Shown: positions 9,205 to 49,258 of the stretch, piece by piece
Numbering within the stretch: position 1 is the stretch's first letter
Layout of the letters: each line of letters begins with the position of its first letter
NCBI GenBank assembly: GCA_964187785.1
Contig: OZ076409.1
Location: 22,694,001 to 22,758,000 of the forward strand
Direction of reading: 5' to 3'
DNA from: Amphiscolops sp. MND2022
Lineage: Eukaryota
Length of the DNA stretch: 64,000 nucleotides
Program-made: the position numbers and the translations under genes
Notes under the pieces: model-generated
Told to the model about the DNA's origin: nothing
What the model saw: only the letters and a program-made list of their open reading frames with translations
The model's database searches: none

Positions 9205-10713
9205 TTATTCGTCGTCGAGGTTATCATTTTTATCCCCATGTTTAGTAACAAGTACATTTACAAGTTTTAAGTTCCAAAAGTTTGAGTTCGCTTTCAAAAA
9301 CATCTGGTTTTCCAGATTTGTCGGCTCCAACTTCTTCCTGTGGTCATTGTAAACGTACTTCACTTGACTGAAAAGACGTTCCACGTGGTCAGATGTTGAT
9401 GGGACCCATTTCAATTCCATGATTTTTTGAAGTTTCGGTTGTTTAGCGGCCAACACTGATTCTGCAAAGTCTTCGCTTTCCAAAACAGCCACTGAATCAT
9501 CTGAGGAAGGGAAACCAGAAAGTTCGTTCATAACTCGCTGGTCAACTTCGCCATTTTTTTCGATAAACTTTGCAATTGCATTTTCGAACTTTGGACATAA
9601 ACTGATCGGATTATCTTCCAATCCCAAATATTGACAGAGCATTGAATGTCGTGACAAAATTTCTTCAAAAAGAGTTCTAACTTGGAACAAATTAATTGAT
9701 TCAGATTGTATCTTTTTGGACACAGAATCAAACTTTTTCAGTTCCTGGTGAATCTTCTTCATTTCAATTTCTTCTAAAGGAGAAAGCAGAAAAATTACTA
9801 ACTCCGGGTCAGATTTGTCAATATGAGGAATGAGTTCAAAATATCGACTGACCAATGCAAATGAAGACCACCATCTTGTATCGTTTCTCACCACTGGTCG
9901 TAGCTTTGTACTCTGTCTCAATTTTCCCGACTGCTTTTGTGAACATAATTTTTTCATCAAATTGTTGATTTTCCGGAGTAGAGGTTCAAAATTCTCCAAA
10001 TATTTTTTCACTGCTAGATTAAGACGATGAGAATTGCAACCGATCATTGGCTTCTGTAAGATATTCGCAATTCGTTTGTTCAGTGGCTCATTATCGCAAA
10101 CTAGAAAAATTACGTCTTCGGTAGACTTGTTGAAGAGTGAGAGGGTATAAGTGATAAATTCAACATGATTTTCAGCATTAAAATTGGTTTCGTCTAAAAG
10201 CGGTGAAAACGCCAATAACACTGTTTGCCTAACACCTTCTAACTGATAAACTGCAAAAATAGCCAAATAATGAGTAGAGGTAGACATATCTGTCCAACCG
10301 TCGAGGAGTAAACCGATACGGCATGGTAATACTTTGGTAATCTCCTTTTCAACCTCAGAAGTTACAAGTGACATGTATTTCATGAATGTATTTCGAGAAA
10401 TGCGCTTCAAGTTTGAATAAAAGCGGTTCAAAGGATCAGTCGTAAATGAAAAGGGGAAACCATTCATAATTACCCATTCTAGCCAACCAAAAATGTTTTT
10501 GGCTTTTGGGTCAATGAAAACATTCAAAACACTTTGACGGGAGGAATTTATTTCTATTTCGAAGTTCTTGTGCTTAGTGCGAATATGCGTCATAAGGTTC
10601 TCATAACCAGCCTCACATTTTCGTTTAGTTCCACATTTGCAAGTGTATTCAGAAGTGTTCGGTTTGCGGGTAAAATAAAACAACGCGACTTCTTTATTAC
10701 TCAATGGAGCCAT
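9205..10713 (-). CDS. hAT-family transposase, 502 aa from the ATG at 10713
   Basis: BED-like CKC...H...H finger; catalytic D in LLLDGWTD; second D in LVCDNE; CxxH motif GCNSHRLNLAV; TRW motif; catalytic E in SDHVERLFS in the C-terminal hAT region. No stops or introns. Confidence 0.95.
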   Translation of the reverse strand: MAPLSNKEVALFYFTRKPNTSEYTCKCGTKRKCEAGYENLMTHIRTKHKNFEIEINSSRQSVLNVFIDPKAKNIFGWLEWVIMNGFPFSFTTDPLNRFYSNLKRISRNTFMKYMSLVTSEVEKEITKVLPCRIGLLLDGWTDMSTSTHYLAIFAVYQLEGVRQTVLLAFSPLLDETNFNAENHVEFITYTLSLFNKSTEDVIFLVCDNEPLNKRIANILQKPMIGCNSHRLNLAVKKYLENFEPLLRKINNLMKKLCSQKQSGKLRQSTKLRPVVRNDTRWWSSFALVSRYFELIPHIDKSDPELVIFLLSPLEEIEMKKIHQELKKFDSVSKKIQSESINLFQVRTLFEEILSRHSMLCQYLGLEDNPISLCPKFENAIAKFIEKNGEVDQRVMNELSGFPSSDDSVAVLESEDFAESVLAAKQPKLQKIMELKWVPSTSDHVERLFSQVKYVYNDHRKKLEPTNLENQMFLKANSNFWNLKLVNVLVTKHGDKNDNLDDE

Positions 10714-10738
10714 GATAAAATTGAGACGCAACACAAAA

Positions 10739-10862
10739 GTGGCAACGCAAATAGCACGGAGAGGTGTGGCAACGCAAATAGCCGGCCGAAGCTAAATCAA
10801 GCATGCGATATCACTCTGTAAGTGGCCGGTCAAAGCTAAATCAACCATGCAATATCACTCTG
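10739..10862. repeat. Subterminal direct repeats at the 5' end of the hAT element
   Basis: GTGGCAACGCAAATAGC occurs twice and AAGCTAAATCAA(G/C)CATGC(G/A)ATATCACTCTG occurs twice, upstream of the transposase ORF. Confidence 0.8.
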
Positions 10863-11075: not shown

Positions 11076-11145
11076 ATGTCTTCAAACAATGTCTCAGGGG
11101 GACTTTCAGCGTGCCCCAGCTGTGGAGGGGGTTTTACTCCGACAG
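11076..11145 (+). CDS. TRIM-NHL coding exon 1 (start codon, first CxxC of RING)
   Basis: MSSNNVSGGLSACPSCGGGFTPT. Joins the next exon in phase 1 via CAG|GAAGGG. Possible upstream acceptor TATAG at 11060. Confidence 0.7.
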
Positions 11146-14100
11146 GAAGGGCTTTCAATTACTATTTTGTACACGTAAAAAATTCTGTTTTTTTTAAAAA
11201 AAATTTATTCCTAGTTATTCGAGAGCTTCAAAAATTGAATAATGAATCTGGCAAAATCTGTTTCAGAAGTGAAGTACGTTTACTCTTTCTTTTATCTTCT
11301 CGGTCGCAGTTGAGTTTTCTTGAGAAAAATGCAGAGCTTTACCATCTCCAATGAGAAGATTTGCTCTCGCAAAAATTCACAGAAATAAATTTCATACCTG
11401 CAAGTCATTTCATATAGACTGACATAATGTGAATTCAATTTTTGCATAGCTGTAATTGTTATTGAAAAGCTCGCTCCTTTTCTGTAGGTGCCAGTCAGCC
11501 CCTTATCATTTCTTGTGGTGACACTTTTTGCAGACGATGCGTGCAGGACTTGACAGATAGCAACGGAGTCCTAGTATGTCCCTGTTGTGGCGAAATCAAC
11601 GACGAAGAGGTCGAATACAGCGTGAACAGATTGGCGCTCTCTCTTCTCACTAACAACAGTAACAACAACAACAGCTCATTGACAGGTGCCAACGTGAACA
11701 CCTCTAAATATTCTTCGTCCGAGTGCAGAAGTCGGCATACATCGGACAACACTTCGGTCAGTAAATACTGAGTAGGATTTAGAAACGTTTCAATTCAATA
11801 TTGAAAGAAAATGATTCTCATTCCGTTCTACAGCTATGTGAAGATTGTTTGAGGAGTGTTTTTATAAGAAAGTCTGATTGAAACAATTTTTGAAACAAGA
11901 GACACGGTGGCATTGCGATATTCTCGGATACAGTTACAAGAAGCTTTTTAAGAAAAATCGAACACTTTGGATAAACCGCATTTTCATTGTTATATACATG
12001 GAAACATCATTTTATAGTTCAGTTTGGATACAGAAGTTTGGAAACCGTTAATTCGAACCCGTCCATCTGGACCTTTCACGCTTCCGAAAAATTTTTTTAT
12101 AACAGAAAACGTCAAAAAATTATAATAGAAGAAAAGGCATGAAGCTATTGTATGGATCAGTTTTACGAATTTTTTTCTTGCGGTTGAAATTTATTTTTGT
12201 ATTCGAATTATACTAGCATACCTGTAGTAGATGCGTCAGACTTGTTTATAAGTTGTCATAAATACCAGCTTGAATGATAGCTTGAAATGCATCAGCATTA
12301 ATCATTTTGCTAGACAGCCTACATTGAAAACAGTTTAGAAAAAACACTAAATTCACATTCATCAAAACAATTTTCAATCCTCAATTCTTTTGTTATTACT
12401 CTGAGTCCATCGTTAACAATACCTGAAACATTCATCCAAAAATTGAAATTTTGGAAACTTCAAATGTATAAACTCTTGCAGGATTTTATCTGGATTTGTT
12501 TTACTTTTACATGCTGCTGAGATGTCACAACTTTACTGCCCATTTAACGCAGTATCACTTTAGTAGAGAGTGGTACAAAACATCCGATTTTAAATCGAGA
12601 CAAAACATCCAATTTTGAGAATGAGACTCAATAGCCCAATTAGAAAATCAGACAAAAGTCGATTATTTATTCATACTTCATTACCAATTCTTAAACAAAG
12701 CTAATTAGCTCAAATGGTAGATTACTAATACTAAAAACCACATCTCTGTTTTTCTGTTTAAAGTGTATTCAGATAATTTTATTTCAAAATTACACTGAAG
12801 GCTATTTTTACATTTTCATTTTTTTTCAAATTGACTGAATTGCCTTGCCCGGGTTTCCCGACCAGGCCGATCATAATCTGACCATATTATGGCACCATAG
12901 AAATCATACAAAGTTCCTTACTATGATCTTGCCATGATCGGCCTGGAATCATATATGGTCCAGAGTATGATCGGCCTGGAATCATATATGTTCCAGAGTA
13001 TGATCGGCCTGGAATCATATATGGTCCAGAGTATGGTCAGCCTGGAATCATAAATTTTTGTTCCAAACGTGTGTTGACGTGATATGCAACCCAAACAAAA
13101 GTTTTCAAATATTGAGAACAGCCAGCTTTATAGGCTAATGCAGCCACATTCGACCTTTTGTATCTGCGAACGATACATTGCAGGTCAGAACTCCGTTAAG
13201 CTCTAAGCGGAGTTAAAGACAAACTATAGTAACTCAATTTGTTCTCAGCCACTCCTTAGTTAACAACTAACTCTTTTGTTATAGCAGTACCCCAGTGTGA
13301 TTTTCGATTATTTCGAGAAAAATTACCAATAATTCAGCAAAAGCTGCCAAACGTTGATGATTGCTACCTTGTTTTCAATTTGGTGATTGTATTGGACCTT
13401 TGGTTGTGGAATATCGTGTAACTTCATCAATGTATGTTAATTGACTTCATTTTCCTAATTTTTTTATGGCTCCAGGCTGACCATACTCTGTGCCATAAAG
13501 ATTTATGGTTCAAGGCTGATCATAGACTGAACCATATATGGCCCAGAATATGGTCAGACTGGAACCATAAACTTTGCTTTTTAAATGGTTCCAGGCTGAT
13601 CATAGACTGGACCATATATGCATATTCTGGACATGTCCAGAATATGGTCAGCCTGGAACCATAAAACTTTATGGTCCAGAGTGTGATCAGCCTGGAATCA
13701 TACTGTGAGTATGATGGCAGAGCATGATTGACCTGTTTTTGTATGGGAGGGAAACCCGGGTGTATTCAAAACCGACTATTTTGTACTGTGTTAGAAATCT
13801 GCTTTTTTGTCTCGTTATTAATCGCCAATTTGTGCCGTTTTTAATCCTGAATCGGTGATTTTAAGAAGGAGACAAAACAGCCTATTTCTAAAACAGTACA
13901 AAATAGCTGATTTTGAATACAGGACAAATCAGTCAATTTGAAAAAAAACAAGCCGGGAACGGCCCAAGTCGGCGCCATATCTAAGGCTCAAAAATAGCTA
14001 AAAGACTTCAAAGTGTCAAGTACTCTCTTCTACAGTACCGGAACGAGGAAAAAAATCCATTTTTTTCGAATTTTTTCGAATTTTCCGGTAAGTCGCATAG

Positions 14101-23100: not shown

Positions 23101-26100
23101 TGAAAGTTGTTGGAGTTTATGATAAAAGTCTTCTGACGTTCTTTCATTTGAGAAGACTGAAAGAAACATTTCTGATTGTTTGATGATTAATGTGTTTCCT
23201 CAGCAACTTGAACTTTAAATGTGTCACTTGAGATTTCTGTTTCTATAGTTTCTTTAAAAACCGTTTCAATTCTAAATTTAAGCTTTTTCATTTCTGTAGT
23301 TTTGGTGTTGTTTTTTCCTGGTTATTCTTTGATAAGGACTCGAAACGAGTTCCTGAGAGGTAACCTCGCATCTTAAATTGGTAAAAGATAAAACACTCTA
23401 ATTGCTAAAGCTTGTAAGATTCCTTTGTGAGAAGTCTGTTTCTGACACCTTATTTTTTCTATCTAGCGATGATGAATCTGCCTGCCCCGAGCGTTTTATC
23501 ATTATCGCCGATCTTGTGTAGACATTGCAAAAATTGCCGAATCATAATCACCAACAATCAGACGAATGAAAGTGTGTAGGTTGTTCATGGGGCACCAATT
23601 GTAGAGTCTATGGATCCATTATTGTCTACGTGAATAATGACTTCAGCAGGAGAGCTAAAAAATTTTCCAATTATCAGCATATAAAAAATCACGGTTTTTA
23701 CCTTGATCAGAAAAAAAGCTGAAGAATAAAAAATAGCGGGCCCAAAACACTCCACTGGGGCATTAGTATTAACGTTGTTGAATCTTATGGTAATATAGAA
23801 ACAAGTAAGATAAATATTGTCTTTTCTGGGCATAGCGACAACTCATATCAAGCGATAACTCATATCAGGCGACAACTCATATCAATTCAAAAATGCGACA
23901 ACTCATATCAAGCGATAACTCATATCAATTAGGAAAAGGGACAACTCATATCAGGTTTGTCTATAGGTTACAAATACATGAATTGTAATAATACCTAATT
24001 GTACTACTTTATAATTAACTACAATTGGAAATTCCAAGGAATATTTGGACTTATTTTCCATACTCAAAATTATTTTCTCTGCAACCCTTTTGTATGAAGG
24101 TGTGATAAGAGAGTGATTATATCCATGACATGATATTTAGCATAAAATCTTGCTACTATTCCATTATTTCTAATAATTATTCATCAATTAAGTAATTTTC
24201 TCTAATATTCTAGTTAATTATTCACATTAAATGTTCCTATGTAGATTTTGATTTTCTGATATGAGTTTTGATTGATATGAGTTGTCGCTTGATATGAGTT
24301 GTCGCTTTTTAAAATTGATATGAGTTGTCGCCTGATATGAGTTGTCGCTTGATATGAGTTGTCGCCGTACGTCTTTTCTGATTTCTTGTGTAATAAAGTG
24401 TAGTGTGATTATTTGTGACGCCAAGCAATGATAGGGTGCTTAGTATGACACAGGAGTGGACGAACCTGAAAACTGGCTCGCTTCCGGAACAGATCCACTT
24501 TAGCACCTTAGCGTCAGGTCCTTTGTGAGAAGGTATCGCATCAAAGAGAAAATCTCTAACCGATCCTAGTCTAATATTGCTAAAAGTAGCAGGCATCTTA
24601 CTGCTATCCTCAAGACCACAGCTCGAACATGAATTAAAACCGAGCATAGGACAACCAGGGTAAATTTGAAGGTTCTTCGGTGAATTAGATCTAAAATAGT
24701 AGCTCACATCAATATATGCAAATACAGATAAAACAGCAACATAATTATGACTAAATTCTGTTTCAACAACACCTGTTTCATGCGCCGACTAAAAACATCC
24801 AAATGTTCAGCAGTTATTTTCCGCTTTTCTGTATAATTAAGAAGAAAGTTCTAATTAGACAAGTGCTTTCTCAGTAACCCCACCTCATTATCACAGTCTC
24901 CTGGGGCATGAAATTTAAATTCAAAGCTAAGGTTCAATATTATGTTTTACTAGTAACGAAGTGAGAATTTATGGATGCAAGATGAATCTCCTAAATCAAA
25001 ACCGTTCTTCATCATTGGTAAAGTCTGATGTTTGTTACTGAATGGATATATCAATGGTATGAACAACAACAGGACGTTCTTTCAAAAACAATTCACAAGA
25101 ATATGTGACTTCTCAATTTTCCTTCATCATTTGTTTCGCTGAGAAACTAGATATCCAAGGACGTTTTTTCAATATTCTGTTTAGTTTTCCAACTCGACAG
25201 AAGTAGCAGTGATAACAGATAGTCCGAAACTTTCTCTGCATCCAACTCCCATAAATGGCAATGTGGACCACAAACATTCGCCCTCTAGCAACGACGAGTG
25301 CAGTGGATGCAAGAAGGACTTTGGGTCAGCCACAGATGAGTTGGAGCATTGTCCCCACTGCGGACAAGCCGTGTGCCCAGTGTGCAAAGGTAGCTAATTT
25401 ATTCGGACTTCTATTTTTAAGGCGACCTAATGTTCGTAATACCAGTTAATTTTATCCCCCATTTCCCAATTTGAAAGTTTTTAAAAATATTTTCTGTCGC
25501 TGAAATTTTTCATTGATATTTGTACAAACACACGAGTAATGTTATGTAAGCTCTGCTAAGCGTTTGGAAAACAGAATCTACTGATGTGGGAGTCCTTTCA
25601 CGGCGGTGAATAGAACATGTTCTACAGTTTAATTTGACAACCTAGAATGAGGCGCTTGTTCTCAAATCAAAATCACATTCAGACAGAACGTATTCGGTCG
25701 TAACAGTTTTTTAGGTCTATCAGAGAAATCGGGCCCGACAAAAAGGAATATCAAACGGTTATACGTTGTCAGTTGAGACGTATTCGATCACTGGCTTCGC
25801 TAACAATACCAACTGAAGATTTGCTTTGAAAAAAATATATATTTGTCAACTTTATGACGTCCTTTTTTCGACAAAGTTGGCAAACCCAACAGTCCGAACT
25901 CTAATATATGCTTATTTTGTGATACTATGACACTAGAAAAATTCTTGTTAAAAATATGCTTCTCTTCGTCAGTTTTTGTTCAATCTCTGCAGAGGCCTCC
26001 AAATTCTCGTTTAATATATTCCTACTTCAATAATGCCATTTTCGCACCACTGCGCTTCAAGGATTTTAGCTTTGTGATACTACAGTAACAAACTTCCTTC

Positions 26101-29100
26101 CCTGCTGAAAAAACTGCAAACGTTATTCAACTGAAAAATTTCACTGAATCATTTTCCTGCCTTTAACGGTAGTTCTATTTGTAGAAAACCAAAATGAACG
26201 ACAGGTCTCAGAGCTGAGACTACTTACACAAAAAACGGTTAGGGTTACAAAACCAAAGACTGAAAATGAATCACAATAACCGTGCAAGGCAAGTACTGGG
26301 ACATTGATCGGCATAAGAAATCATTGTATAGTGACAATAACTATTAGGAAGTTATTAGGAATAATTTTCATGAAATTGTCAGACTCTGAACACTCTTTAC
26401 AAAGCTTTGAACGAAACCACCAATCTTTGGACAAGGTGAAAGGATCTCTCTTGAAAAACATTGAGGCTCAGAGAGAGGGACAAGGTTGTTGTCTTTGTTT
26501 TCAGGGGAGCACAAGATGTTGGTGCTGGAGAGACTGCACACGAGTAGAGCCAGAATACAGGAGAAGGTTGACGACATGCGCTTCTCGCAGCAGTACAAGA
26601 AGGAGACTATTGCGCAACTCAAACTACAAGGTTACATAATACATGGCATAAATACGAAAAAGGCCGTGGCTGTGATTTTAACAGCTCGGTGATATATATC
26701 ACCGAGCTGTTAAAATCACAGCCACGGCCTTTTTCGTTTGTATACCTTTTTCGGTGATAGGGAGTATAGTCACTCGGTAATAATGCAAAAACAATTTATA
26801 GTAGAAACCAATTGATTTCTCAATTGCGATTTGTTCCATTCGAATGTGAGCTTTGAATGAATTATATAAGTGTAGTTGGAGAAAAAAATTATACGAGTGT
26901 TAATAATTATCAACTTTTATTCAGGCGTTGCCAGACTCGGTTTAGTATCATTTCACCCCATGATCATTTCACCCCATATCATTTCACCTCATATCATTTC
27001 ACCCCATATCATTTCACCCCATATCATTTCACCCCACATTCATTTCACCCCACGTTCATTTCACCCCACGTTCATTTCACCCCAAATTCATTTCACCCCA
27101 CGTTCATTTCACCCCACACTTAAATTATCAAATGCATCTCAGATAAATGACTATTGCCACCCAATTTCAATCTTAGCGCTGATAGAAAAGTGTCTTGGTT
27201 CTAATTACCAATTAGATAAGCAAACGATGCTTGCTATGTGAACCACAAAATCGGAACCGAAAAGTTTCACTTATCGGAATTGTAATACTTCAGAACAAGG
27301 AGCTCAGAAAAGTCATTTTTTCTGTCAATCAAAGTTTACAACTATGGATGCTGCGAATCTTCAGCAAAAAAATCCTTTTCCGTTTTCCTACGGCAAAAAA
27401 TTTCCTACTGGCCAGAAACCTCAAAGCTAACTCAAAAACAGTAGGCATCAAAGTTTAATTGTTGATTAACGTGAGACGCTTTTGTATAATTACAATATGG
27501 TGTGAAATGAAAGTGGGGTGAAATGAACGTGGGGTGAAATGAATGTGGGGTGAAATGAATGTGGGGTAAAATGAACGTGGGGTGAAATGAATGTGGGGTG
27601 AAATGAATGTGGGGTGAAATGATATGGGGTGAAATGATTTGGGGTGAAATGAATGTAGGGTGGAATGAATGTGGGGTGAAATGATATGGGGTGAAATGAT
27701 TTTGGGGTGAAATGAACGCACACCGTCAGACTCAACTGTCCCTGAACTGATCAGAAATGTTGATTCTTGAGAAAGTATTTTGTCTGTTTCTTATAGATGT
27801 CATCATGATCAAATCATATTGCAGCACAGAAACAACCAAAGTTAATTAAGACCTGACAACGGTGAGAATTTTGAAAATCGTAGCCTTCGACAAGTCTTTT
27901 CAAGACAATGGTACTCACCCGTACGTGTTCTGATAAAATTCTTACTTCAAGGTCTGCTAAGGAAGGGTCAAGTCCTGTACCAGTGCTTAAAAGTGCCACT
28001 TTTAGCCTTACAAGAACTGGGTCAGTCCTTGCCTGTCCATGTGAATTCCTGCTGGCGCATTCTGGGGCTAGCCTGGGATGTACTGGAGCAGAATTAAACA
28101 AAAATGGTCTAAGAAATGAAAGTATCTATTAGAGAACGGCACTAAGTATTCAGTGTTCATGAATATAGGACTGCTTCCGTAGTCCTTCACAATCGAAAAC
28201 GGGACCAAACATTTTTTTCGGAGTATTGACTGGTAAAAAAACACAGTCGGCGGCGGCAGGGTATCTCTGTATTATGGTGCAATATGATCATATTTCACTT
28301 CTTGGTGGAATAAAATCACACGTCGAACTAAAATCACTCTATTATGGTGCAATAGGATCTAAAATCATTTGTTTGATGGTACAAGATCCAAAATCACTGC
28401 ATTCTAGTAGATTGATGTCACAACCCCACTGTTGTGCTGGCGCCATGGGGCAATTCCCAAGAAAACTAAAACCGCCAAACCCAATTTCCAGAAGATTATG
28501 AAATTTAGATGGTCAACAAGGACTATAAACAAGTCCCACAGCTTCTTACTTTAGCCATGTAACTTCATATTTGTTAACGTAATTTTATACTGAGATCAGT
28601 TTTACATTGTTATACATCTGAAGTATTAGATGCGTAAATTTCATTCATCATTACATACTAGTATGACTCATAATACTTGTTGACGCAGTGCAGTTTGTGA
28701 GAGATAATTTTATACTAATATACTGAATTGCAGACAAAGAGTATGCGGCATCATGAGGATTGACTACTGACGAGTATGCGGCATCATGCGGATTGACTAC
28801 TGACGAGTATGTGGCATCATGCGGATTGACTACTAATGAGTATGCGGCATCATGGGGATTGACTACTGGCGAGTATGCAGCATCATGCGGATCAAGGTCT
28901 GACGTATATACGTCAACATACGCTTTTTGCACAAGTGCCACTATACGTCACTATGCGGTTTGATAAGTGACGAGCATACGACACTATGCGGTTTTAGCTG
29001 CATCAGCTGTAGTTTGGAGCTCTTATCTCATTTGCTGCTAAGTAAAATCTGAAATACTTTTGTGCATTGTCTCATATCATTTTCTGGGGTCCTTTAGATT

Positions 29101-35100: not shown

Positions 35101-38100
35101 TTGGTTCTCTCCTATACAGGGCAGAATCTCGAAGAGCTGATTATGCTCCTTTTTTGTCCTGCTTGAACGTTTATTTTAGTCTTTTCATAATTATGTTGGA
35201 TTACGTAATCGTTCAAGAAAAATAAACTTTCAACTTTCTTTCAATTTTTTCCAATTCGTCCAAACAATTGTCTAATGTCAAAGAAGAAGCCTTGTAGTAA
35301 CCTTGTGAATCCCTTTATGCGGGAAGAGACATCAGTTACAGATGCTGCTTGCTTGGAAATTTCCAACTTTGATATCAGTTTTTAGTCGGCGCTTCATGAA
35401 GTGAAACGCGACTATTATAGTGACCCTTTTTTATTCAATCCACACGAACTGACCAAAATAGTGCTTAAACGTTCTACAAAGTATGATGGTCCCGAATTGA
35501 ATCATTTGGCCTAGCGGATTGAACCAAAAAAAGTTCCTGTTTTTCCGCGTAACATACCGTACCGGAGAGACTAAAGGGTCCCCTTTCAGTTTTTTGGCAT
35601 CGTGAGACTTTTTTTCGAAAAAAATTCCCCAAAGGGTCCCCCCTTCAATTTTTTGACGTTTTGCAACAATGGATGTTGAAAAATTCGAAAGGGTCCCCCC
35701 TTTTAGCGCCAGCTCGGTCGTTTGGGTTTTTCGTGAGTTTGATAATCTTTTTGTGAGTTTGATACTTTAAGCTTTTTGAGACTTTCATGTCGTTTTGCTA
35801 TTTTTGAGCCTAAGATATGGCGCCGACTTATGCCGTTCACGGCTTGTTTCATTCAAACTTGATTTGTAAAACCTCGGAGCCTAATCTCAAAGAGCGAATC
35901 GATGGTGTGAAAACCTATAACTAGCATAGCCAGTTGAAACTGAACAGAATGTGAACAGTTTGAAACCTTGAGTTTTTAGACTCTGCCAATATCACAACTT
36001 GAGTGATTCAATTCAGTCATTCACGATGGAGCCGAGTTTTGTTACACGCACATGTGGTGGGTGTTTCAGTTAACTTTTCGTTGCGAAATTTTGCTTCTCA
36101 AGTTTTTTGAGTTCCGTGATATTACGAAAAAGGAATCCATTAAAGAAATTGTTATAACGCTAAAATTTGTCCAAAGGGACTTTTCGTGTGTTCGTGTTTT
36201 GCCTTTGTCAAAAACTGAGTTTCGACTTCGAGATTTCTTCATCTTTTGTTATTTTAGGGAACTTTTTAATAATGAAAGGCAAGGAGATTTTAGATATAGT
36301 GGACAGTAAAGAGCAGTATGGGAGATAAATGTTGTTAGTGAAAAACCTTCCTCACTGTAAAACTGAAAATAACGAACACTTCCAGAACAATAGGTTCTCA
36401 TCAAATTTGTTTGGTTGAAATATTTGAAACATAAAAGTCCATCATTCAAAATCTGCTCTTCTAAATTAATGGCTTAATCTTCATTAACCTGTAGCTGTTC
36501 TATAAAACCGTATATTAGCTAAGGATTAAATTACATGATATATTTAAATTCACAGGAGATGCGGAAATACAAAAAATCAAGGCAGCCATTGAAAAAGCGA
36601 AGATGTTGATAATTGAAGAAATGGACAAACGAAAGGAGTCGTTGATCAAAGAAGTTTCAACATACGTTGAGAACACGGTCAAAACATTAGACGCGCAACT
36701 TGTTCAATGCGCCACGGCACAAACGGATGTGGAGCATCGCTTGGTCAAAGTGTCGCCCATTTCGACGAAAGAAGAGAAAGCGGAAGGGGTTGAAAACGCG
36801 GCGGCTAACAATGATGATCTTTTGCAACTGTGTCAGACTCAGATCACGTACGGGAAGTGCTTGAAGATTCTGGAGAATTGTGTGAAAGATCAGCCGGAAG
36901 TCAAAGCAACTATGCTCAAGTTTTCAGACAACGCTGATTCAGTGAACCTGTTAAACACTGTGGTCAATTACGGCGCTTTGAAAGGTTAATGATTCTTTTA
37001 TTGCGCCAACAAGTCAATGTTTTTAAGTGCTATAGCGGCAAAACGTTTCTTTTTTGTGGAAATTTATGAATCATGCTAAAAATCATTTGAGATATAGTTC
37101 AAAAGGCCTAAACGGGAAGGAACACAAGGAATAAGAAAATATCCAAACTTGAAAAAGTACTTACTTGCTCTAAAACGAATGCGGTTTAGTAGACAACAAG
37201 ACATCTGCAGATCACTGGCACTTTGCATTTTAGGTTTTTTTTTGAAAAATATAGTGAGTAGCTAAATAAATTCGCGTTTATCCCTGAGGACATTTATTAC
37301 CATCCCTAAGGAACTCCAAAAACTGCATAAAACAGTGGCAAAAGGAAAAATTTCACACTTTTTGTTAACTTCAGCCTCTTTTGACAAAAATTCTAATGTA
37401 TTAACAACTACAAGAGTAAGTTACAAAAATGTTTCGTTGTTTAAAACTCGAACTCACAAAACATCCAGTACACATTCAAAAATTAAAAAAAAACGGACCC
37501 GTTTTTTTCAATTCATTTTTTTAAAAGAAGAGTTTTATAATTCTTTTAACCAAAGTACGCTGAGTAATTATTTGCTTGCTGTTTCAACCCGCTGGATCTG
37601 GCCCTGATACCTCAAAAATTATGTAGAAACTGCATAAAACGTACGAAAGTTTTTGCTATTTTTGTTTTTTTTTTTCGTCAAAAAATCTATTGTTCTTATA
37701 GAAAAATTTCCCTGAGCGCTCAATGCTGTATTTAGGAACGCTGTGCATACTCAATATACAAGAAAACATCCGTGAATTGTACACCAACTGCATGAAATAA
37801 TCAAAAATTTAGCAGTAAGAAAAAAATTAATTGCTAATTACGAAGGTGGGAATTCGAAAGAATTTAGGCTTTGCTAAGTTGGTGCGTTTTTCAGATATTT
37901 CTCCCCATGTCATAGTATGGTACCATTTTCGTAGCCAAGTGTATGAAGTTCGTGTTTTTATTTTCCGCCCATATTTCATATGGGAAAGGAAAATATTTAA
38001 ATCAAACGGGTTTTTTTTTTTTTTTTTTACAAAATTTGCCAAGATTTTATTTATATTTAAATTTAAGGGTGTTACCCATAGAATTCAACCCACATAAATT

Positions 38101-41100
38101 TAGCTTCGTGCGATATGTATTTGTAGAGATTTTTGAAGTTTTTTTAAAAAATGACGAAAATGACCCCTTAATGACAAAATGACCCCTTAATGACAAAAAT
38201 TCCCAAATTTCTCATTTTTAAACGTTTTTATGCAATTTTTGCCATTTTTTTGAGAGACACCGCGAATTAGAAAAATGGACAAGATGAATCGAAGCTTTCT
38301 TTTCTTCGAACTTCTCAGCGTTTTTATAGTGCATTAGTTATTCTTGAGCCTCATTTATGTAGTTGTAGAACAGTTCGGGGCGGAAAATATCCCGCTCCTC
38401 AGCGGGCGTCTTGTTTTAATACATATGCTACGAAACTATTTTGCTGGTAGTTGAATTCTGTGGAAGAACATCTTTAATTTAAGCATGAAATTGGGACATG
38501 GCAAATTAAGGTGAAAAACGCTGCGCATTTAGTAATTGTTTTCAAATGAAAACAAAACAAAACAATACGAAAACTCTTGTCGACGCACCGCTTAAAGCCT
38601 AAAAATCGCACAACCTCAAAGTCTCAAAAATGCTCACAGTGACTTCAGTTTTCATAAAAATCAGAGATCATAAAACTCCAAATGTGCACCCTGTGGCTTT
38701 AAAAGCACCTTTCTTTGACTGAAATCATCCAAAAATATCAATTTGGTTAAAGAAGCCCTCCTTTGTTGAACTTTTATTGCTGAACTTTTGGAAAAAAAGT
38801 CTCATAGTGCCGAAAAACCTCAATGGGAGACATTTTGATACTTTCCAGCCTTGTTGATGTTTCAAGTTAGTGGTCCTAGATATGAGATGGTCCTAGATAT
38901 ATTTCAGATTGGCTTCACGATGATATGAAGTCACCGAAGGAGATGAGCAAATGGAAAGAAAAAGTGGATTAGTCTCTGTGACTAATGACGAAAAACCAGA
39001 AAAATTTGCTTCTGTAAGAGTAATACTCGGCTACTAATAATTAGTTCAAAGGATGTTTGGTTTGATATTTGTTGTAGAGCGAGAATGGGAGCTTAAGATG
39101 ATGTTTACTCTTTCGTTTCAGGCTCAGCAGCTTTGGAGACTAACCTAAAAGCATCGGAGGGATATTTATCTAAGGCACTCAGCAGTCAGGGTATTCAGTC
39201 CAAGCGCTTGCACCGCTACAGAGCCGTAGTCGGAGGAACACCTCTCTTCTCCACTAACTTCCGGTTACAACATCCTGTTTTAATTAAACCCGAAATTTGT
39301 TTTAATGGTTATTTGTTTCCAATTTTTAGTCGGCACTTTATGAAATAAAACGCGCCTATTATAGGAACTTTCCGTCGTGCTTTTTTTCAATCTGTCCGAA
39401 AAGACCATTTGTAGCCGAATGACAAAATCCAAAAGTCTACAACAAAATTGTACAAATTGGCAAGTTGGTCGGAAGGATCTCCCCAGTGTTCGAAACCATG
39501 GCATCCTTGCCAAGATCCATGGCAAGTTCCTTGGCAGCCTTGTCAAGATTTTGCCATGATCTTGCCATGATCTTGACAAGCGTTCCATGTATCATGATTT
39601 GCGATGATCTTGACAAGGGTACCATGGTTAACCATGATTTAGCAAGATTAACGATGATCATGGCAAGCGTTCCATGGCTTCGCACACTGGGTCCCCATTC
39701 GTAATTTCACATACTTATTCGGAATAAAAGAAATTTGAGTGTTATTTTCGGAACTGTGCAACTTTTTCGAAAACATTTCTTTTGCTTTGTTAAATAATCC
39801 CTCTTTCGTTTTGTTAGATAATTTTGGACGAGAAGAATCGTTTTAAGCCCAAGGGGTCCCCGCTTTGGGTTTTTTTCAGCACTGTACGACTTTTTTCAGA
39901 TTTTTTTTTCACAAAAGAGTTCACTTTTCCTATAATTTTTTCCTCCAGATGAACTGCTTGCCCAACCATTTTGCTTTTTTGGGTTTCAAAAGATAAAACA
40001 TAAACTTGGTGTGTTCTTAGGCGTTTTATACTCTTTTTGATGAGTGATCGCGCTTCTTATACGTGATGATCATACATCGATATCCCGTGAATTCCCATGG
40101 ACACAGTTCCACGGTCTTTGGTCTAGCGAACCATGAATCATGGATGGATCATGTAGGAAATGAAAGCTTGAAAACCTGGACAGTTCTACCAGTCAACTTG
40201 AAGTTGAAAGAAGTTGAAACAACTCGGTTTGTTTGCAGGTCTGCTGGTGAGTCAGGGGACTCCCACTTAGGGGTTAAGGGGGGAGGGGCCAATGCGAAGA
40301 GTGGGGACTACATGTGTGTGCTCAAGGACGACCGAGTGGCAGTGAGTTGCATGGAAGAGTCAGCAGTGTTTGTGTATGACAAGAGTCTAGAGAACAAGGA
40401 CACAATCAAGATAGAGCAGAGCACCTCCCTGAAGGTATGAAAAATCCCCTATCGAAACTTCATTACATTATCTCCCCTAATACTAATAATGATAATCTTT
40501 TCGCAGGTAAAGAACTCCATTGAACATTTTATGAAGGAGTGCTTTTTCCTAATTGATGATTTGCTGCTTGAGGCTTCGTTTTTGGAAAAGTTCTAATTTC
40601 GAATATTTTACTTCATCATTAAATTTTTCTTCATTATAAAATTTGAAGATTCATGGTTATCAAAGGTTGTGCAAATTGACGCTCTGAAATGTTCAATAAT
40701 TTCGGAACAATGGTCTTCATTTTCAGGATGCTTGGATGCAGGAACTATTCAAGTTATACTTCCGTCATTTCAATTTCGTCTTCAAGTTTTTGTGAATGAT
40801 TCCATTTAAGTGAAAGATGGTTTCAAGATCAGAGCAGAAAGTGCAAAGTTGTGATGTACGTTTCAAGCGATTAAATCACGTGATGATATTGCAGTCCCTG
40901 ATTGTAACTGATTGAATGTTTTACATGTTTCTGTAGAATGTCAAGGATTTTATTACGATTTTACAAAATTCTGAGCAAAACTTTCACGCTAGAAAGTTCT
41001 ATTGAATGAATGATACTCTTGTATCATATTTTCATCCATGTTCCATGCATGAATTTTTACACGTTTCTATAGAATGATAAGCATTTCATCATGATTTTAT

Positions 41101-44100
41101 AAGTTTCTGACCGAAACTTTGATGCTGGAGATTTGTCTTTTGTATCATACTTTCATCCATGTTCCATGAATTTTCACATGTTTCCGTAGAATGCTTAGCA
41201 TTTTATTATGATTTTGACTGAATCTTTCATGCTTGAGACATGTCTGTTGTATCTTACATCCATGTTCCAGGGTATCGCCAGCACTAACTCTAAATTAGTC
41301 TTGCTTCTTCGCAACACCCTGGAACTCTACTCCCTGGACAATCTAAGAGTGAGTGGCAAGTTTCTGGGTAGCAGTGAACTAGTGAACCCTATCTCCCTCA
41401 CAGCCTCTACTAACAAGATCTTTGTGTACGACCAAGACAGAGACCGCTCTTTCCACTACATCGCCATTTTCGACTCCTCTGGCAAATATTGCTCTAAGAA
41501 GTTCATAGCTGAGGCCCGATGTGATCTCAGCGCCACCATCTCCGCTTCAAAAGTAGGTTTCTCCTTTTCACCGCCAGGGGGCCACTAATTTTCTATTCTT
41601 CCAAAGTGAAGTTTTTCAGCCACTTTTAGGAAACCTTAAAAATATGGCATATTTATTTCATTTGACCTTGCTGTGCTTGGTTTGATCTACACTGTACTGT
41701 TAACAATTGTTATGTCTCGCAAGTTTATACTGATAGAATTATAAAAAAAGTTGTTGTTATTCAACGTCAAATACCAAGCTACCAAAAAAGCGCATATTCA
41801 AAAATCTGTAGACATCGATGAACGGCGTCGTGGAAATCCAAGAATCACTTCTGAAATCATGACTTGTTGTTATTTTTGATACATTAAACAATCGAGAATT
41901 CGAACTCATAAGTACTCAAAACGTACTAACGAACTCAAACGTACTAATCAAAAAAATCTTTCTCGGAATTTTGACATTTAGCAGTGAAAAGTCACCATCA
42001 CAATTATTAGTGGTGGTGATTTCTCGCAATGTTTTGAAATTGACAAAATCGCAGTTTTTAGTGGCGAACTATTTTTTCCGACAGAAAATTACCTGAAATA
42101 AATTTTTCAAGAAACTTCGTAAAAAATCTTTAGATGTTCAAGGAAGAAGCAGCCTGCATTTGACGGCATCATGTAAAATGTTACAACAGCCAATTTTAAT
42201 TAAGGTACGCAACCGGTATAGTCTCTAAGAAATATATAAAGAAAAAATCGAACAGAAAAGATCTCACAAAAAGCCTCAATAAAGTGCGTGGAAATTTTAC
42301 ACATACACGACCACCTTTTAACGCAAATTGTTTATTCAATTTTCAGGAACCCACGTTTGTGTTATTTTTGGGTCCCTTTATCCCAAAGCATTGCCATTAG
42401 TCGCATATTCGTTGATATCCTAAAGCAGTTAAGTATTCATTAGTAGTAGTTTATTCTTAATCACGATCAAAATAGTAGGATTCTCTGACTTTTCAAAAAA
42501 GATACAAACTAATCACCAATTTGTTTGTTTTAGTAAAAGTTGACATTTCAATAGATTTTTTGTAACTCAAATATTTTACACAGGACCATTGATCGGGCGA
42601 TTAACGCTCGGTTAGGTTAGTCCATTCATCGAAACCTGCTATTTCGTGATAAAAAGTTACAATAGTAGAATAACAAACCAGGAACCGCATAAGTCGGCGC
42701 CATATCTAAGACTCAAAAATGGCCAAAAGACTTCAAAATGTCAAGCATTCTTTTACAGTACACGAAAAACCCAAAAATTGGACCAAATTGGCGCGCCGGG
42801 GACCAAAGCTGGCGCGCTAAAAGGGGGGACCCTTTTGGAATTTTCAATATTTCTGTCGCAAAACATCCAAAACATTGAAGGGAGACCCTTTGGGGACAAT
42901 AAAAATTTTTTGAGAAAAAGTCTCAACGCCGAAAAAACTGAGAGGGGGACCCGTTGGGATTTTTCAACATCCTTTCTGCAAAATATCAAAAAAAGAAAGG
43001 AAAACCTTTGGCGAAAAAAAAAATTCGAAAAAAAAGTCTCACAACGCCGAAAAAAAACTGGAAGGAGGGACACTTTAGTCTCGCCCGCTATTGTATGGTA
43101 AGCGGGAAAAAAAGGAAAAACCTTTTTGGTCCTGTTCCTTGGGCCAAATGCTCCATTTTGACAACATAAAATTTCGTAGAACTTTTAGGAACTAATTTGG
43201 TCGGTTCGTGTGGATTGAAAAAACTGATAATTAAATTGTCGCGTTTCACTTCATGAAGCGTCGACTAAAAATTGAGTGGTCGTTTTTTCCGTCCTCCTGT
43301 TTCTAAGTTTCAAAAACAAAAAAAAAGTTCTATCAAATTCAAATGGCAAAATAAGAAAATAGGTTCACAGCAGATGTCTTGGAGATATTTCAACTTGTCA
43401 TTTCAATGAAGTTTTGGAGTGAAAAGTGCCCGAAAACGCACAAGACTTGCATCCAAAATAGCCTAAAAACTGCAAATATTTCAATCAGTGGCCATTTAAA
43501 GGAGTTCCGAGTTGAACTACGAATCAGTAAGCTATACAGTACTGATTCGTACAGTAAGCAATACAGTAAAAATTATGTGAATTTTGACGATGTTTCAAAT
43601 ATTCATCCAAAACTCAATATATTATTACCAAGCTTTACGACGGCCTGGTTGACAACTTGTAAAGTATCTTGCTTTTCAAAATATAGGTGATTCCACTCAA
43701 TGCGTAGCAGTTCAAATCAACCTTATTTTTATTCAAACGCTTGTTGCTAAACACTTGCCTAGAAAATCCTCTGCATTTCCAGCCTTATTGACAAGAAGCT
43801 AATAAAAAATAACTTCTTTCGCTTGATAAGGATGAAATTGGCGTAAAGGATCACCAAGCAGGAAAACCTTTTTGGCTTTGGTTAATAAAAAACTTGCAAG
43901 ATCGGATCTCTGTCGAACTACATTTTCTCTCAAAGTGGCCAATAAAGGTGGTTGTTACCGCCTATAAATAGGACGATGATATCATAAAGATCTTTTTTAG
44001 GTAAATGAAAACGTGTTCTATTTTTGCTCCAGGCCGTGATAAAACGTTGACTTTAGCAAAATCGAGCCCTTTTCCTTGGCCATCCGAAATTGAAATTTTT

Positions 44101-47100: not shown

Positions 47101-49258
47101 TTTCAACCGATATTAAAAGCTTCAGTGTTTTACCTAGTTTGATAATATTATTTCAATATTTTCACGTGGTTATTCAATTCAATGTTTTTAATTCAATCCC
47201 ATTTCTTTTTCACAAACATATGTTCCGTTTCTTTATCACAGTAATGTAGGTGGTAGTGCGAATAACAGCAAAGTACTTGTAAACAAAATGGCTGTTTGTT
47301 TTACAACTTATTCATTCTCTTGACACTTTTGATAAGACTCTTACCAAGATTCCTATCAAGAATTTCAAGAGGGTTGTGTGAAGCAAGAATAAACAAGATC
47401 TTATCAAGAGTTTCAAGAGTAAACGGGAATATGTAAGAATATGCAAGATCTTGGCAAGAGTTTCAAGAGTTTCTACACTGGGGAGGAATGTCACAAGGTG
47501 TGAATATTTTGAAAAATAGTTTCATGATTTAAATTCATATTTTTTCTTTCAGCCCAAAATGAACGATGACGTGCTTCTTCTGGTTGGAAGCAGCAAAAGT
47601 GTGTACCTGAAAGTGTTCAATGGCAACTGTGAACAACTCTGGGAGTTCAACCTGGATGAGCCCAAGATCCAGGGTCGCAAATGGAGGCAGGTTCTTCTAA
47701 TCATTGATTTTGGCGGGACATACAGTTTTGTAGAAAAAACCTTCGTTTCATGTGTGTTTGTTCGAAAAATTTTCCGACTTGAAATAAGGTTCTGAATTTT
47801 TGCTACAATACTAATTGTACGATGTTGGAAAAAAATTCTAGCTCATAAAAACTCAATAGAAAATCAGAAGTAGTCTGAACCACATTTGAAATACCAACCT
47901 GAAACTTTATCGTAGCCGTAGATCCTTCAAACTGTCTTCCTAAAAAACTCTCGACTGTTATCTACAAAAATTTGATCGTGCATTTTTGATTTCCGAAGAA
48001 ACTATTCAACATTCCTGCATATTTGGGTTCTCGATATGAGGAATCTTGCAGTTAATACCATGACTGAAGTTACTTTGCATTAAAATGACGGTAAATTCGA
48101 TGGCGTCTCATCTGCATGGAAAATTTTCAAGAAAATTCATTTTCCCAATTCGGTTGGTTTGGACGTCTAATAAGTAAATTTAGTTCTGTTTTATTGAGTC
48201 GACTTATTGGATAAGTTACAAGTTTTCAAAAGCCCTTGAAAGGAGTTTTCATTTGCTTATATTCGGATTTACGTCCTAAACAGGTGAGGATTTATTAGAA
48301 TTATCGTCAGAATTTCGGAAGCCAGAATACGTTATCATAATTTTTCGCACAATTTTGCATACAAAATTTTTTCAGCAGGTTGAAGCATTTTGATTTTGAA
48401 AACGAGTAGAAATAGTCGTTTTTGGGTGAAAAGAGCCTTTATATTAAGTCTCGGCTGCTCCTAACAAAGGTATAGTGTTTTTTTATAATCTTAGAAATTT
48501 GTCCATCGTGATAAGATACGATCTTGGAATAATGTAATATCTTAGTAAGATCTTAATAAGAATGATTGGTTGCCAAGATGTAGTAAAAATTTGGCAAGAT
48601 CTTGCCAAGATAACCAAGATCCTAGTAAGAGGGTCAACCCGGGTACTATCTCCACATAACGAATTTTTGATGAATCTCTCAAGCAACTTGATAAAAGTTG
48701 AATGTAACAGGAAAGTTTAATGCATGAAAGTTTCTCTGAATTGTTCAGAAAGTCATGAAAAAATTGTCGGCAACTTTAAAGTGCATGTAAAAAATTAATG
48801 CAACTCCAAAAAGGACATGGAACCATATGATTACTTGCCTGGAAAGTATAGTTTGCATGGATTTCATGGAAAGTGTTGTTGTCATGATTTCATGTATACA
48901 ATCGCAAAGAATCGGGTTGATCATATACATGGTTACACGTATAGAAACTTGCTTGAAACTCTCATGAATCTGGATCCAGGAAGACACACTATTCGAGTTT
49001 TTTAATTAAAAACTTTTAAATCAAAATAAGGGAAAGTCTGTTTTTAGACCGCAGGACACCACTGTGGATAATGAAGGAAACTTCTTGGTACTCGACAGCA
49101 GCGGGAGAAAGGTGTTGATTTTCAACAAGGAGGGCAAGTACTGCAGTCAGTTTGACCCCTTCTCCATAAGGTCAGGTCAATGCTCCAGACTGGCTGTCAA
49201 CTCAGAAGGTCACGTGATTTTAATGGAAGCCTCAAGAGGACGGATATCACTATATTAA
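11076..49258 (+). CDS. TRIM-NHL protein gene (RING, B-box, coiled coil, 6 NHL repeats; NHL-1/Abba-like), 10 coding exons, ~687 aa
   Basis: join(11076-11145, 11488-11756, 25185-25389, 26505-26630, 36556-36984, 39122-39263, 40239-40434, 41271-41552, 47553-47686, 49048-49258) = 2064 nt. Every junction is phase-compatible, there is no internal stop, and domains are in canonical TRIM-NHL order. Confidence 0.85.
11488..11756 (+). CDS. TRIM-NHL exon 2 (remainder of RING, Asn/Ser-rich linker)
   Basis: Acceptor CCTTTTCTGTAG; PLIISCGDTFCRRC...CPCC; donor GTCAGT, phase 0. Confidence 0.88.
12848..13760. mobile_element. Non-autonomous TIR element with CCC...GGG termini and 2-bp TSD (CMC/EnSpm-like), nested in an older palindromic repeat
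   Basis: 12-bp TIR CCCGGGTTTCCC / GGGAAACCCGGG with TG on both flanks; internal ~33-bp repeats in both orientations. Host inverted arms near 12820 and 13920-13947. Confidence 0.8.
13947..14780 (-). mobile_element. Helentron-type (HINE) non-autonomous element cluster with three stacked 3' termini
   Basis: The terminal sequence AACAAGCCGGGAACGGCCCAAGT(C/T)GGCGC recurs at ~13947, ~14192 and ~14489. Confidence 0.75.
15731..16542. repeat. 180-bp higher-order tandem repeat (~4.5 copies) of six ~30-bp subunits
   Basis: Sequence recurs exactly every 180 nt. Subunits of 31/29/29/29/31/31 nt share a TAACGTCTAAAATCAC-like core. Confidence 0.95.
16545..17315. repeat. Older diverged ~170-178-bp tandem repeat (~4.5 copies)
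   Basis: A TGGTTTCCACTGTTCCCCAGTTTGCCCCAT-like motif recurs near 16550, 16726, 16904, 17076 and 17246. Confidence 0.8.
18701..19815 (+). mobile_element. Head-to-tail HINE array with 518-bp period
   Basis: 18701-19005 is essentially identical to 19219-19523. The HINE 5' end TTTTTAGTCGGCGC occurs at ~18982 and ~19500. Confidence 0.8.
21002..21684 (+). mobile_element. Complete Helentron-associated non-autonomous element (HINE/DINE-like)
   Basis: 5' T-run plus AGTCAGCGC; 3' GCGCCGACT plus hairpin GCCGG-TC-CCGGC plus TTGTT; no TSD. Internal GC-rich hairpin near 21492-21528. Confidence 0.8.
23833..24367. mobile_element. Foldback-type MITE with inverted arrays of a 17-bp unit
   Basis: GCGACAACTCATATCA(A/G) repeated at 23835-23953 and inverted at 24257-24367, around an AT-rich core. 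Confidence 0.8.
25185..25389 (+). CDS. TRIM-NHL exon 3 (B-box-like zinc finger)
   Basis: Acceptor TTCTGTTTAG, phase 0; CSGC...HCPHCGQAVCPVCK; donor AAG|GTAGCT, phase 1. Confidence 0.85.
26383..26484 (+). CDS. Candidate alternative exon 4a, paralogous to exon 4b
   Basis: TTGTCAG acceptor and CAAG|GTTGTT donor; 102 nt, phase 1 to phase 1. Encodes DSEHSLQSFERNHQS...AQREGQG, with the same EH-x5-ER-x-H-x-S pattern as exon 4b. Confidence 0.55.
26505..26630 (+). CDS. TRIM-NHL exon 4b (end of B-box, start of coiled coil)
   Basis: Acceptor TTTGTTTTCAG; GEHKMLVLERLHTS...AQLKLQG; phase 1 to phase 1. Confidence 0.85.
26654..26737. repeat. Perfect spacerless palindrome with 42-bp arms
   Basis: ACGAAAAAGGCCGTGGCTGTGATTTTAACAGCTCGGTGATAT followed by its exact reverse complement. 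Confidence 0.95.
26939..27724. mobile_element. Mutator/Foldback-like non-autonomous element with inverted 15-bp minisatellite arms
   Basis: TCATTTCACCCCA-based arrays at 26948-27118, inverted at 27498-27716. GGT...ACC termini; 9-bp TSD GCCAGACTC / GTCAGACTC. Confidence 0.8.
28739..28892. repeat. 33-bp minisatellite (~4.7 copies)
   Basis: GAGTATGCGGCATCATGCGGATTGACTACTGAC in tandem. Confidence 0.92.
29108..29749 (+). mobile_element. Probable solo or partial LTR containing a decayed gag-leader ORF
   Basis: Decayed coding segment MGNRRNRRSKELDSP...SEDEDDPLKASDMKE...EEDYH ends at ATCACA, paralleling the DEDHD/CGACA LTR end of Gypsy element 2. Left boundary (TGTGAT at 29108) is uncertain and no TSD was found. 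Confidence 0.45.
31866..32377 (-). mobile_element. Complete HINE-like element
   Basis: AACAAGCCGAGAACGGCCAAAGTCGGCGC at the left and GCGCCGACTAAAAA at the right. Confidence 0.8.
33677..35245 (+). mobile_element. 5'-truncated non-LTR retrotransposon (CR1/L2 group) with a 5' inverted duplication
   Basis: RT ORF runs to a stop at 34963; the 3' UTR ends AATAAA plus short CTTTCAA-type repeats. 33677-33803 is the reverse complement of 33811-33937. Confidence 0.9.
33803..34963 (+). pseudogene. LINE reverse transcriptase, C-terminal part (open frame, N-terminally truncated)
   Basis: [28 protein letters not shown], LFADD and KYLGVLID motifs. Confidence 0.93.
35379..35848 (+). mobile_element. Complete HINE-like element
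   Basis: TTTTTAGTCGGCGC ... GCGCCGACT-TAT-GCCGT-TC-ACGGC-TTGTT. Confidence 0.82.
36556..36984 (+). CDS. TRIM-NHL exon 5 (coiled coil)
   Basis: Acceptor ATTCACAG; helical DAEIQKIKAAIEKAKMLIIEEMDKRKESLIKEV...YGALK; donor AAG|GTTAAT; phase 1 to phase 1. Confidence 0.88.
39122..39263 (+). CDS. TRIM-NHL exon 6 (linker into the NHL domain)
   Basis: Acceptor CTTTCGTTTCAG, phase 1. The phase-2 donor CCG|GTTACA was chosen because it matches the next exon, so the exact donor is less certain. Confidence 0.7.
39482..39691. mobile_element. 210-bp MITE with CCC...GGG termini and TC TSD
   Basis: CCCAGTGTTCGAAACCATGG versus CCATGGCTTCGCACACTGGG; TC on both flanks; internal CTTG(A/C)CA(A/T)GAT repeats. Confidence 0.88.
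40239..40434 (+). CDS. TRIM-NHL exon 7 (NHL blade 1)
   Basis: Acceptor TTTGTTTGCAG; DYMCVLKDDRVAVSCMEESAVFVYD; donor AAG|GTATGA, phase 0. Confidence 0.85.
40920..41270 (+). repeat. Three diverged ~100-135-bp tandem copies of the intron 3' end before exon 8
   Basis: Each unit has CATGTTTC..TAGAATG and ends CATCCATGTTCCA; only the last copy ends in CAG. Confidence 0.8.
41271..41552 (+). CDS. TRIM-NHL exon 8 (NHL blades 2-3)
   Basis: Acceptor TGTTCCAG; ELVNPISLTASTNKIFVYD...IAIFDSSGKY; donor GTAGGT, phase 0. Confidence 0.88.
42672..43271 (-). mobile_element. Complete HINE-like element
   Basis: AACAAACCAGGAACCGCATAAGTCGGCGC ... GCGTCGACTAAAAA; internal sequence shared with the 21002 and 35379 copies. 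Confidence 0.8.
45161..45360. other. Assembly gap (200 N)
   Basis: Run of N within TRIM-NHL intron 8. Confidence 1.
46460..47482. mobile_element. CCC...GGG-type TIR element (GA TSD) enclosing a Tc1 fragment
   Basis: TCCAGTGTAAAAACTCTTG versus CAAGAGTTTCTACACTGGG; GA on both flanks; CAAGA(T/A)TCTT subterminal repeats. Confidence 0.75.
46720..47246 (+). pseudogene. Tc1/mariner transposase C-terminal remnant with right TIR
   Basis: YTNILAAHLLP...LLQQDNAPP; frameshifted WFLENGVDVLENWP/SPDLNII; end NRGGFNRY-stop at 47116; probable TIR end ...CACAGTAATG followed by TA. Confidence 0.85.
47553..47686 (+). CDS. TRIM-NHL exon 9 (NHL blade 4)
   Basis: Acceptor TTTTTCTTTCAG, phase 0; DVLLLVGSSKSVYLKVFNGNCEQLWEF. 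Ends at a GC donor (47687) or alternatively a GT donor (47691). Confidence 0.8.
49048..49258 (+). CDS. TRIM-NHL exon 10 (NHL blades 5-6, stop)
   Basis: PQDTTVDNEGNFLVLDSSGRKVLIFNKEGKY and RLAVNSEGHVILMEASRGRISLY-stop match the NHL consensus. Confidence 0.9.

Follow-up and report, generated by a model that had tools for sequence, protein, structure and literature searches.

A tandem exon pair that is probably spliced one exon at a time at the B-box/coiled-coil junction of an acoel TRIM-NHL gene

Introduction

Steric exclusion between neighboring exons is, as a splicing mechanism, well-known textbook knowledge. In Caenorhabditis elegans, five validated or proposed clusters have an intervening intron that is too short, and all of their exons are multiples of three nucleotides (3n) in length; the examples are egl-15 5B/5A (14 nt), let-2 9/10 (30 nt), bet-2 3a/3b, gly-5 9b/9c, and gly-6 8a/8b (PMC4165533). 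Among human clusters, 57 (9%) are described as showing potential steric interference, with less than 50 bp between donor and branch point (PMC5740500). Exons 18a and 18b of TCF3 (E12/E47) are mutually exclusive duplicates, and the choice between them alters a dimerization region (PMC6795145).

Here, we describe an exon, 4b, and a candidate exon, 4a, lying 20 nt apart in a 64,000-nt stretch of the genome of Amphiscolops sp. (the window). As in the C. elegans clusters, the spacer is shorter than the minimal intron of the species and the exons are 3n in length, so that frame alone cannot exclude joint inclusion. However, those clusters are supported by RNA, whereas the pair described here is known from DNA alone; the phylum and the gene family are also different, and 4a and 4b are unequal in length, with 10 of 32 aligned residues shared. 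The likeness to the human clusters, as that survey presents them, lies in a donor too near the downstream branch point and in exons that encode the same structural element. Unlike those clusters, the 4a/4b spacer is free of A ahead of its final AG, and the branch point would sit upstream of the donor, within the first exon. TCF3 differs in being a bHLH factor, with exons that are 74% identical and with exclusion that depends on hnRNP H1/PTBP1 and intronic elements rather than on spacer length (PMC6795145). What it would have in common with 4a/4b is a pair of mutually exclusive, duplicated exons altering a dimerization region, which in our case is a predicted one. Exons 4a and 4b of OGDH are reportedly a further case for comparison.

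The host gene shares the RING, long helix, and NHL propeller, and putatively the B-box, of the TRIM-NHL proteins, a family that includes Thin/Abba, TRIM32, Mei-P26, Brat, TRIM71, and TRIM2/3 and for which dimerization through antiparallel helices has been modeled (PMC9070667). In the literature searched (most subscription papers and supplements lay outside its scope), we found no TRIM gene with a pair of alternative exons where the B-box meets the coil, and nothing on acoel introns bearing on this pair, or on this gene. If our reading is correct, it would add a steric either/or exon pair for an early-branching bilaterian lineage and also one in the TRIM gene family, where the literature searched had none at this position. 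It would also mean that the dimer helix of a TRIM protein exists in two natural versions whose pairing could be compared.

Results

The host gene and its product

The closest named relatives of the host gene are two proteins of Convolutriloba macropyga, P0003 (712 aa) and P0002 (268 aa). Spliced alignment to P0003 gave a plus-strand gene with ten coding exons, from 11076 to 49258. The predicted isoform with exon 4b (687 aa) is identical to P0003 at 416 of 685 aligned residues. The features outside the exon pair are as follows; the start of exon 3 was placed by hand, from phase and acceptor.

11076..11145, + strand: exon 1, coding part, with the ATG and the first two RING cysteines (spliced alignment to P0003; open frame)
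11146..11487, + strand: intron 1, phase 1, with apparent GA-AG ends; L035 lacks it (spliced alignment)
11488..11756, + strand: exon 2, remaining RING and linker (spliced alignment to P0003)
25185..25389, + strand: exon 3, six B-box cysteines, with a phase-1 donor at 25389/25390; start less certain (phase and acceptor)
36556..36984, + strand: exon 5, remaining coiled-coil region (spliced alignment to P0003)
39122..39263, + strand: exon 6 (spliced alignment to P0003)
40239..40434, + strand: exon 7, start of the NHL propeller (spliced alignment to P0003)
41271..41552, + strand: exon 8, NHL propeller (spliced alignment to P0003)
47553..47686, + strand: exon 9, NHL propeller, with a GC donor (spliced alignment to P0003)
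49048..49258, + strand: exon 10, NHL repeat and stop codon (spliced alignment to P0003)

By its predicted domain order, the host gene is a RING/B-box/coiled-coil/NHL (TRIM-NHL) gene of the ubiquitin-ligase type. Two RING models, zf-RING_UBOX and zf-RING_5, score above the cut-off on the orthologue in L035, a 1031-nt contig from another relative, and below it on exon 2 of the window alone. The B-box pattern of six Cys and one His is conserved in three species; the Pfam B-box models match it weakly (E 0.14-0.33), and Atlas leads to B-box clusters at 0.85-0.88. For the coil, the structural model of P0003 has one 110-residue helix at residues 197-306 with a pLDDT of 61-86, a range also found over about 161-300, within a model of low overall confidence (mean pLDDT 43.6); exon 4b would encode roughly the first 40-43 residues of this modeled helix. 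In the NHL propeller, PF01436 scores above the cut-off on exon 10 and Atlas gives 0.96; search matches include TRIM71, TRIM2/3, Brat, and Thin, and the best folds are the NHL domains of Thin and Mei-P26. From what is described for the family (PMC9070667), a long helix of the P0003 type would be the dimer helix. E3 ligase activity, dimerization, and NHL ligand binding would be expected of the product purely on family knowledge.

As a reference for splicing, we used the 1.07-Gb genome that holds the window (G000), in which 8 stretches with myosin genes and 31 with kinesin genes yielded 233 intron calls. We kept 109 nonredundant, well-anchored introns, on which the coding and splice models were trained, and dropped 124 calls that were weakly anchored or redundant. 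None of the 109 has GA-AG ends (103 begin with GT and 6 with GC). The GA donor of intron 1 was chosen because the RING loop aligns collinearly to the orthologue with no other donor; given the control introns, it must be either a rare site or a base error. A GA donor is possible as well in L003, a distant paralogue described below. Donors in the control introns most commonly start with GTT (40/109), followed by GTA (37).

Anatomy of the exon pair

Between exons 3 and 5, the window contains the following features:

26383..26484, + strand: candidate exon 4a (phase 1-1, 102 nt), encoding the His of the B-box and a shorter, diverged coil start; weak acceptor
26467..26471, + strand: putative branch-point motif within exon 4a that would serve the acceptor of 4b (A at 26470, position -35)
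26485..26504, + strand: 20-nt spacer, in which the 4a donor overlaps the 4b pyrimidine tract and the sole A is that of the final AG
26505..26630, + strand: exon 4b (phase 1-1, 126 nt), encoding the conserved His of the B-box and roughly 40 residues at the start of the long helix; acceptor very strong

The original prediction described two exons of 102 and 126 nt with phases 1-1, AG/GT ends, and a 20-nt spacer, GTTGTTGTCTTTGTTTTCAG, and our coordinates agree with it in every respect. Each exon was said to supply the last His of the B-box, and each indeed does so after the six cysteines of exon 3, although an extra residue ahead of EH in 4a gives C-x4-H compared with C-x3-H in 4b. Both exons also carry the motifs proposed to be shared, EH-x5-ER-x-H-x-S and AQxxxQG, but the A of the latter varies among 4b orthologues. 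The distance from the B-box His to a conserved Arg is 65 residues with 4b and 65 in P0003, versus 56 with 4a and 98 with both exons.

Either exon alone would give a product with a single terminal stop, of 679 aa with 4a and 687 aa with 4b. Because both lengths are 3n, exclusion cannot be enforced by frame alone: joining 4a to 4b would give a product of 721 aa, and skipping both would give one of 645 aa. Retention of the spacer, as had been claimed, shifts the frame, and a premature stop follows 54 nt into exon 5, 375 nt ahead of the next junction. Exon 4a is single-copy in the genome, both as DNA and as protein, and no third copy of exon 4 was found in introns 3 or 4.

Exon 4a has the properties of an exon

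Judged by its coding and splice features, 4a is exon-like and not a product of chance. In the predicted frame, it scores 13.5 or 14.4 bits for coding likeness, and the other two frames are negative. Of 1474 stop-free intron frames, no more than 0.2% do as well, and among 48 pieces of real exons its score falls at the 25th-33rd percentile. This signal is confined between the AG and the GT of 4a, and the frame changes at 26505. Compared with 1442 overlapping phase-1-1 AG..GT open segments from 181.5 kb of introns, which served as pseudo-exon controls, 4a ranks first both on coding score (next 10.1) and on likeness to three 4b orthologues (20.3, next 14.3). It also ranked first in a blind scan for hidden exons across all nine introns of the host gene. 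A single candidate outscored it in 150 kb of control introns (1 of the 39 control introns with a candidate), and this one may well be a genuine myosin VI exon that escaped the aligner. Finally, when neutral decay to the observed 38.5% nucleotide identity was simulated, with substitutions only, without indels, and with a codon pairing picked on protein similarity, frame, sites, and coding score were kept in 0 of 20,000 runs.

The relationship between the two exons is less pronounced. Likeness to 4b is matched by 6 of 9757 unrelated coding windows and by 98-211 of 20,000 shuffles, so homology of 4a and 4b is supported but modest. The residues that they share (10 of 32 aligned) point to a modest similarity that is in part generic coil composition, and their DNA similarity is not significant, with 835 of 3000 shuffles as good.

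Other features of 4a are those of a poor exon. Its acceptor is weak: among real sites it ranks at the 12th percentile, and an equal score is reached by 16% of the AGs in introns. Its donor is middling (32nd percentile), and the acceptor of 4b lies at the 99th percentile. The total exon score of 4a, 16.1, is below that of all 19 control exons of 60-160 nt, the lowest of which reaches 20.0 when scored in-sample. GC3 is 0.42 in 4a versus 0.64-0.82 in 4b. Donor-like GTs as good as that of 4a occur 15-30 nt upstream of 3 of the 109 real acceptors. One myosin gene yielded a 17-nt intron call that we rejected as an aligner artifact, a false donor having arisen in this manner, and a 42-nt call was discarded since it lay in an unaligned region.

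The spacer compared with introns of this genome

The shortest well-anchored control intron is 84 nt and the median is 806 nt (n = 109, myosin and kinesin genes only); the shortest credible call among all 233 is 68 nt, and L035 has an intron of 56 nt. This floor rests on two gene families, and rare micro-introns may exist outside the sample. The spacer is free of A except for its final AG, as are only 3 of the 109 control acceptors over positions -20 to -3. A standard lariat thus cannot form inside the spacer, and the branch point of 4b must lie in 4a or upstream of it; A26470 is a candidate. No clear branch-point consensus was found in the 109 introns, where the best enrichment was 1.6-fold. 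Being far shorter than 68 nt and lacking a branch-point A, the spacer makes joining of 4a to 4b unlikely.

A search for RNA structure across 4a and 4b was negative (z 0.17), and docking-selector repeats of a convincing kind were likewise not found. A 102-nt near-perfect palindrome at 26645-26746 (two 51-nt arms, 94%) starts 14 nt past the 4b donor, and no second copy of it was found in the genome. It could conceivably affect use of the 4b donor.

Exon 4b is conserved in relatives

Comparison with the relatives identifies 4b as the conserved form. In P0003, the B-box runs directly into 4b and then into exon 5, corresponding to the exon 3-4b-5 join. L035 has the B-box and 4b fused into a single exon, and the donor that follows 4b is found there at the corresponding position. 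The residues of 4b are identical at 34 of 41 positions in P0003 and 36 of 41 in L035. L035 has no intron where 4a would lie and nothing 4a-like in its 1031 nt. Likewise, 4a is absent from both C. macropyga protein models, which contain only 4b and whose names carry no isoform suffix.

At four-fold sites, the window and L035 are identical at 10 of 36 positions. Synonymous sites are thus saturated and can neither date the pair nor tell a gain here from a loss in the relatives. Since L035 is without intron 1 as well, its structure would be accounted for by precise intron loss by way of a 4b message. The gene in L035 (220-865) is compact, without introns 1 and 3 of the window, and one of its introns measures 56 nt against 13.4 kb at that place in the window. 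P0002 and P0003 correspond to two near-identical loci on one contig; one C. macropyga model stops just past the 4b donor, leaving only RING, B-box, and a short coil.

We found no close paralogue of the host gene in the genome. Its distant paralogues have no intron at this place and so cannot date the pair. Three of them, L003 (C12), L038 (C5), and L039 (C8), have a similar six-ligand B-box and a coil; of the two His in the shared motif, only the first is present in them. Protein searches with exon 5 (for longer proteins) and with the 4b frame returned no matches; P0003 exists and was nevertheless missed by them, so these blanks mean little.

Discussion

A sterically exclusive pair and its alternatives

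Two possible scenarios were originally put forward for this locus, namely, mutually exclusive splicing of 4a and 4b or an exceptional 20-nt intron between them. The former is still the best available reading: 4a is exon-like, the spacer is under the intron floor, and a product with both exons is 33 residues too long compared with the orthologue. What did not hold is the expectation that 4a would be conserved, as it is absent from L035, the one relative examined as DNA. The latter scenario, with a 721-aa protein that includes both exons, would agree with the GT-AG ends of the spacer and with joining in frame. Yet the spacer has no internal adenosine and falls far under the 68-84 nt of this genome; moreover, the His-to-Arg distance would be 98 residues versus 65 in the orthologue, which joins exon 3 directly to 4b. 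We thus disfavor it and rank it among the least likely explanations. Just as improbable is a role in tuning the level of the gene, in which the 4a acceptor would mainly yield a degraded transcript of 4a, spacer, and 4b. The stop 375 nt ahead of the next junction and the weak 4a donor would fit, but the coding bias of 4a, the register of its His, and its in-phase donor would be left unexplained.

The main rival is that 4a once worked and has recently become silent, or is used at the level of noise, so that the gene makes 4b protein only. This is unlikely but deserves to be taken seriously, given the weak acceptor, the low total exon score, the absence of 4a in relatives, and a GC3 below that of 4b. 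Against it, frame, phase, sites, and coding bias are intact; neutral decay never kept these features, which means that any silencing must be recent. As for the weak acceptor, those of exons 3 and 5 score weakly too, and TTGTCAG ends well-anchored kinesin introns in this genome. It is much less probable that 4a is an alternative first exon, with an internal promoter and an in-frame ATG at 26371, 12 nt upstream of the 4a acceptor, spliced to exon 5 to give a coil and NHL protein without RING or B-box. In that case, there would be no reason for the acceptor phase to fit the exon 3 donor or for the B-box His, pointless without the cysteines, to be in register, and the 30-nt bin with the ATG is not coding-like, a comparison of little power. 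Less probable again is that 4a has never been an exon and is an intronic look-alike with no relation to 4b. The pairwise shuffles alone (p 0.013-0.019) and the tendency of GT-rich acceptor tracts to produce false donors would speak for it, whereas 4a tops the 1442 pseudo-exons on two largely independent scores, is the best hidden exon in the nine introns of the gene by blind scan, and is not a repeat.

Taking these points together, we consider it probable that 4a and 4b are a sterically enforced mutually exclusive pair in which 4a is the minor form. The two exons are likely old tandem duplicates that are spliced one at a time, since the spacer, which has no internal adenosine, is likely too short to be removed as an intron. 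The default path would be exon 3-4b-5 because the 4b acceptor is very strong. In some cells, the weak 4a acceptor would be chosen, and 4a would then be joined to exon 5. The two choices may compete physically, given that the 4a donor lies on the 4b pyrimidine tract and that 4a contains the likely 4b branch point. Should the 4a acceptor at times be paired with the 4b donor, the resulting leaky transcripts would carry the premature stop and be removed by nonsense-mediated decay. In the 4a protein, the start of the dimer helix would be resequenced, with 9 residues fewer between the His and the conserved Arg.

A more elaborate version of this mutually exclusive splicing is rather doubtful as a whole, and we put it forward tentatively. 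A TRIM-NHL ligase might switch the first third of its dimer helix by means of an either/or exon, with exclusion built from overlapping signals (the 4a donor being the 4b tract and 4a containing the 4b branch point). With 9 residues fewer in this region and about 70% of it resequenced, the 4a protein might pair differently, forming no or weak a/b heterodimers or holding the RING and B-box in a shifted position, and the switch might have been lost in a relative in one step, by precise intron loss. If true, such a switch would be a natural test of how coil sequence sets partner choice in TRIM proteins.

Repeats and mobile-element-like frames in the window

 Just upstream of exon 1, on the minus strand, there is an open frame of 528 codons (9208-10791), which resembles a hAT-type transposase. 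Two further open frames, at 33788-34960 inside intron 4 and at 49613-51451 just past the stop codon, are presumably reverse-transcriptase-like (LINE-type), and those at 1025-4954 and 54400-57500 are, we assume, Gypsy-like. Intron 4 also contains two arrays of units of about 15 nt (26940-27120 and 27500-27720), which lie in opposite orientation about 400 nt apart and resemble the ends of foldback elements.
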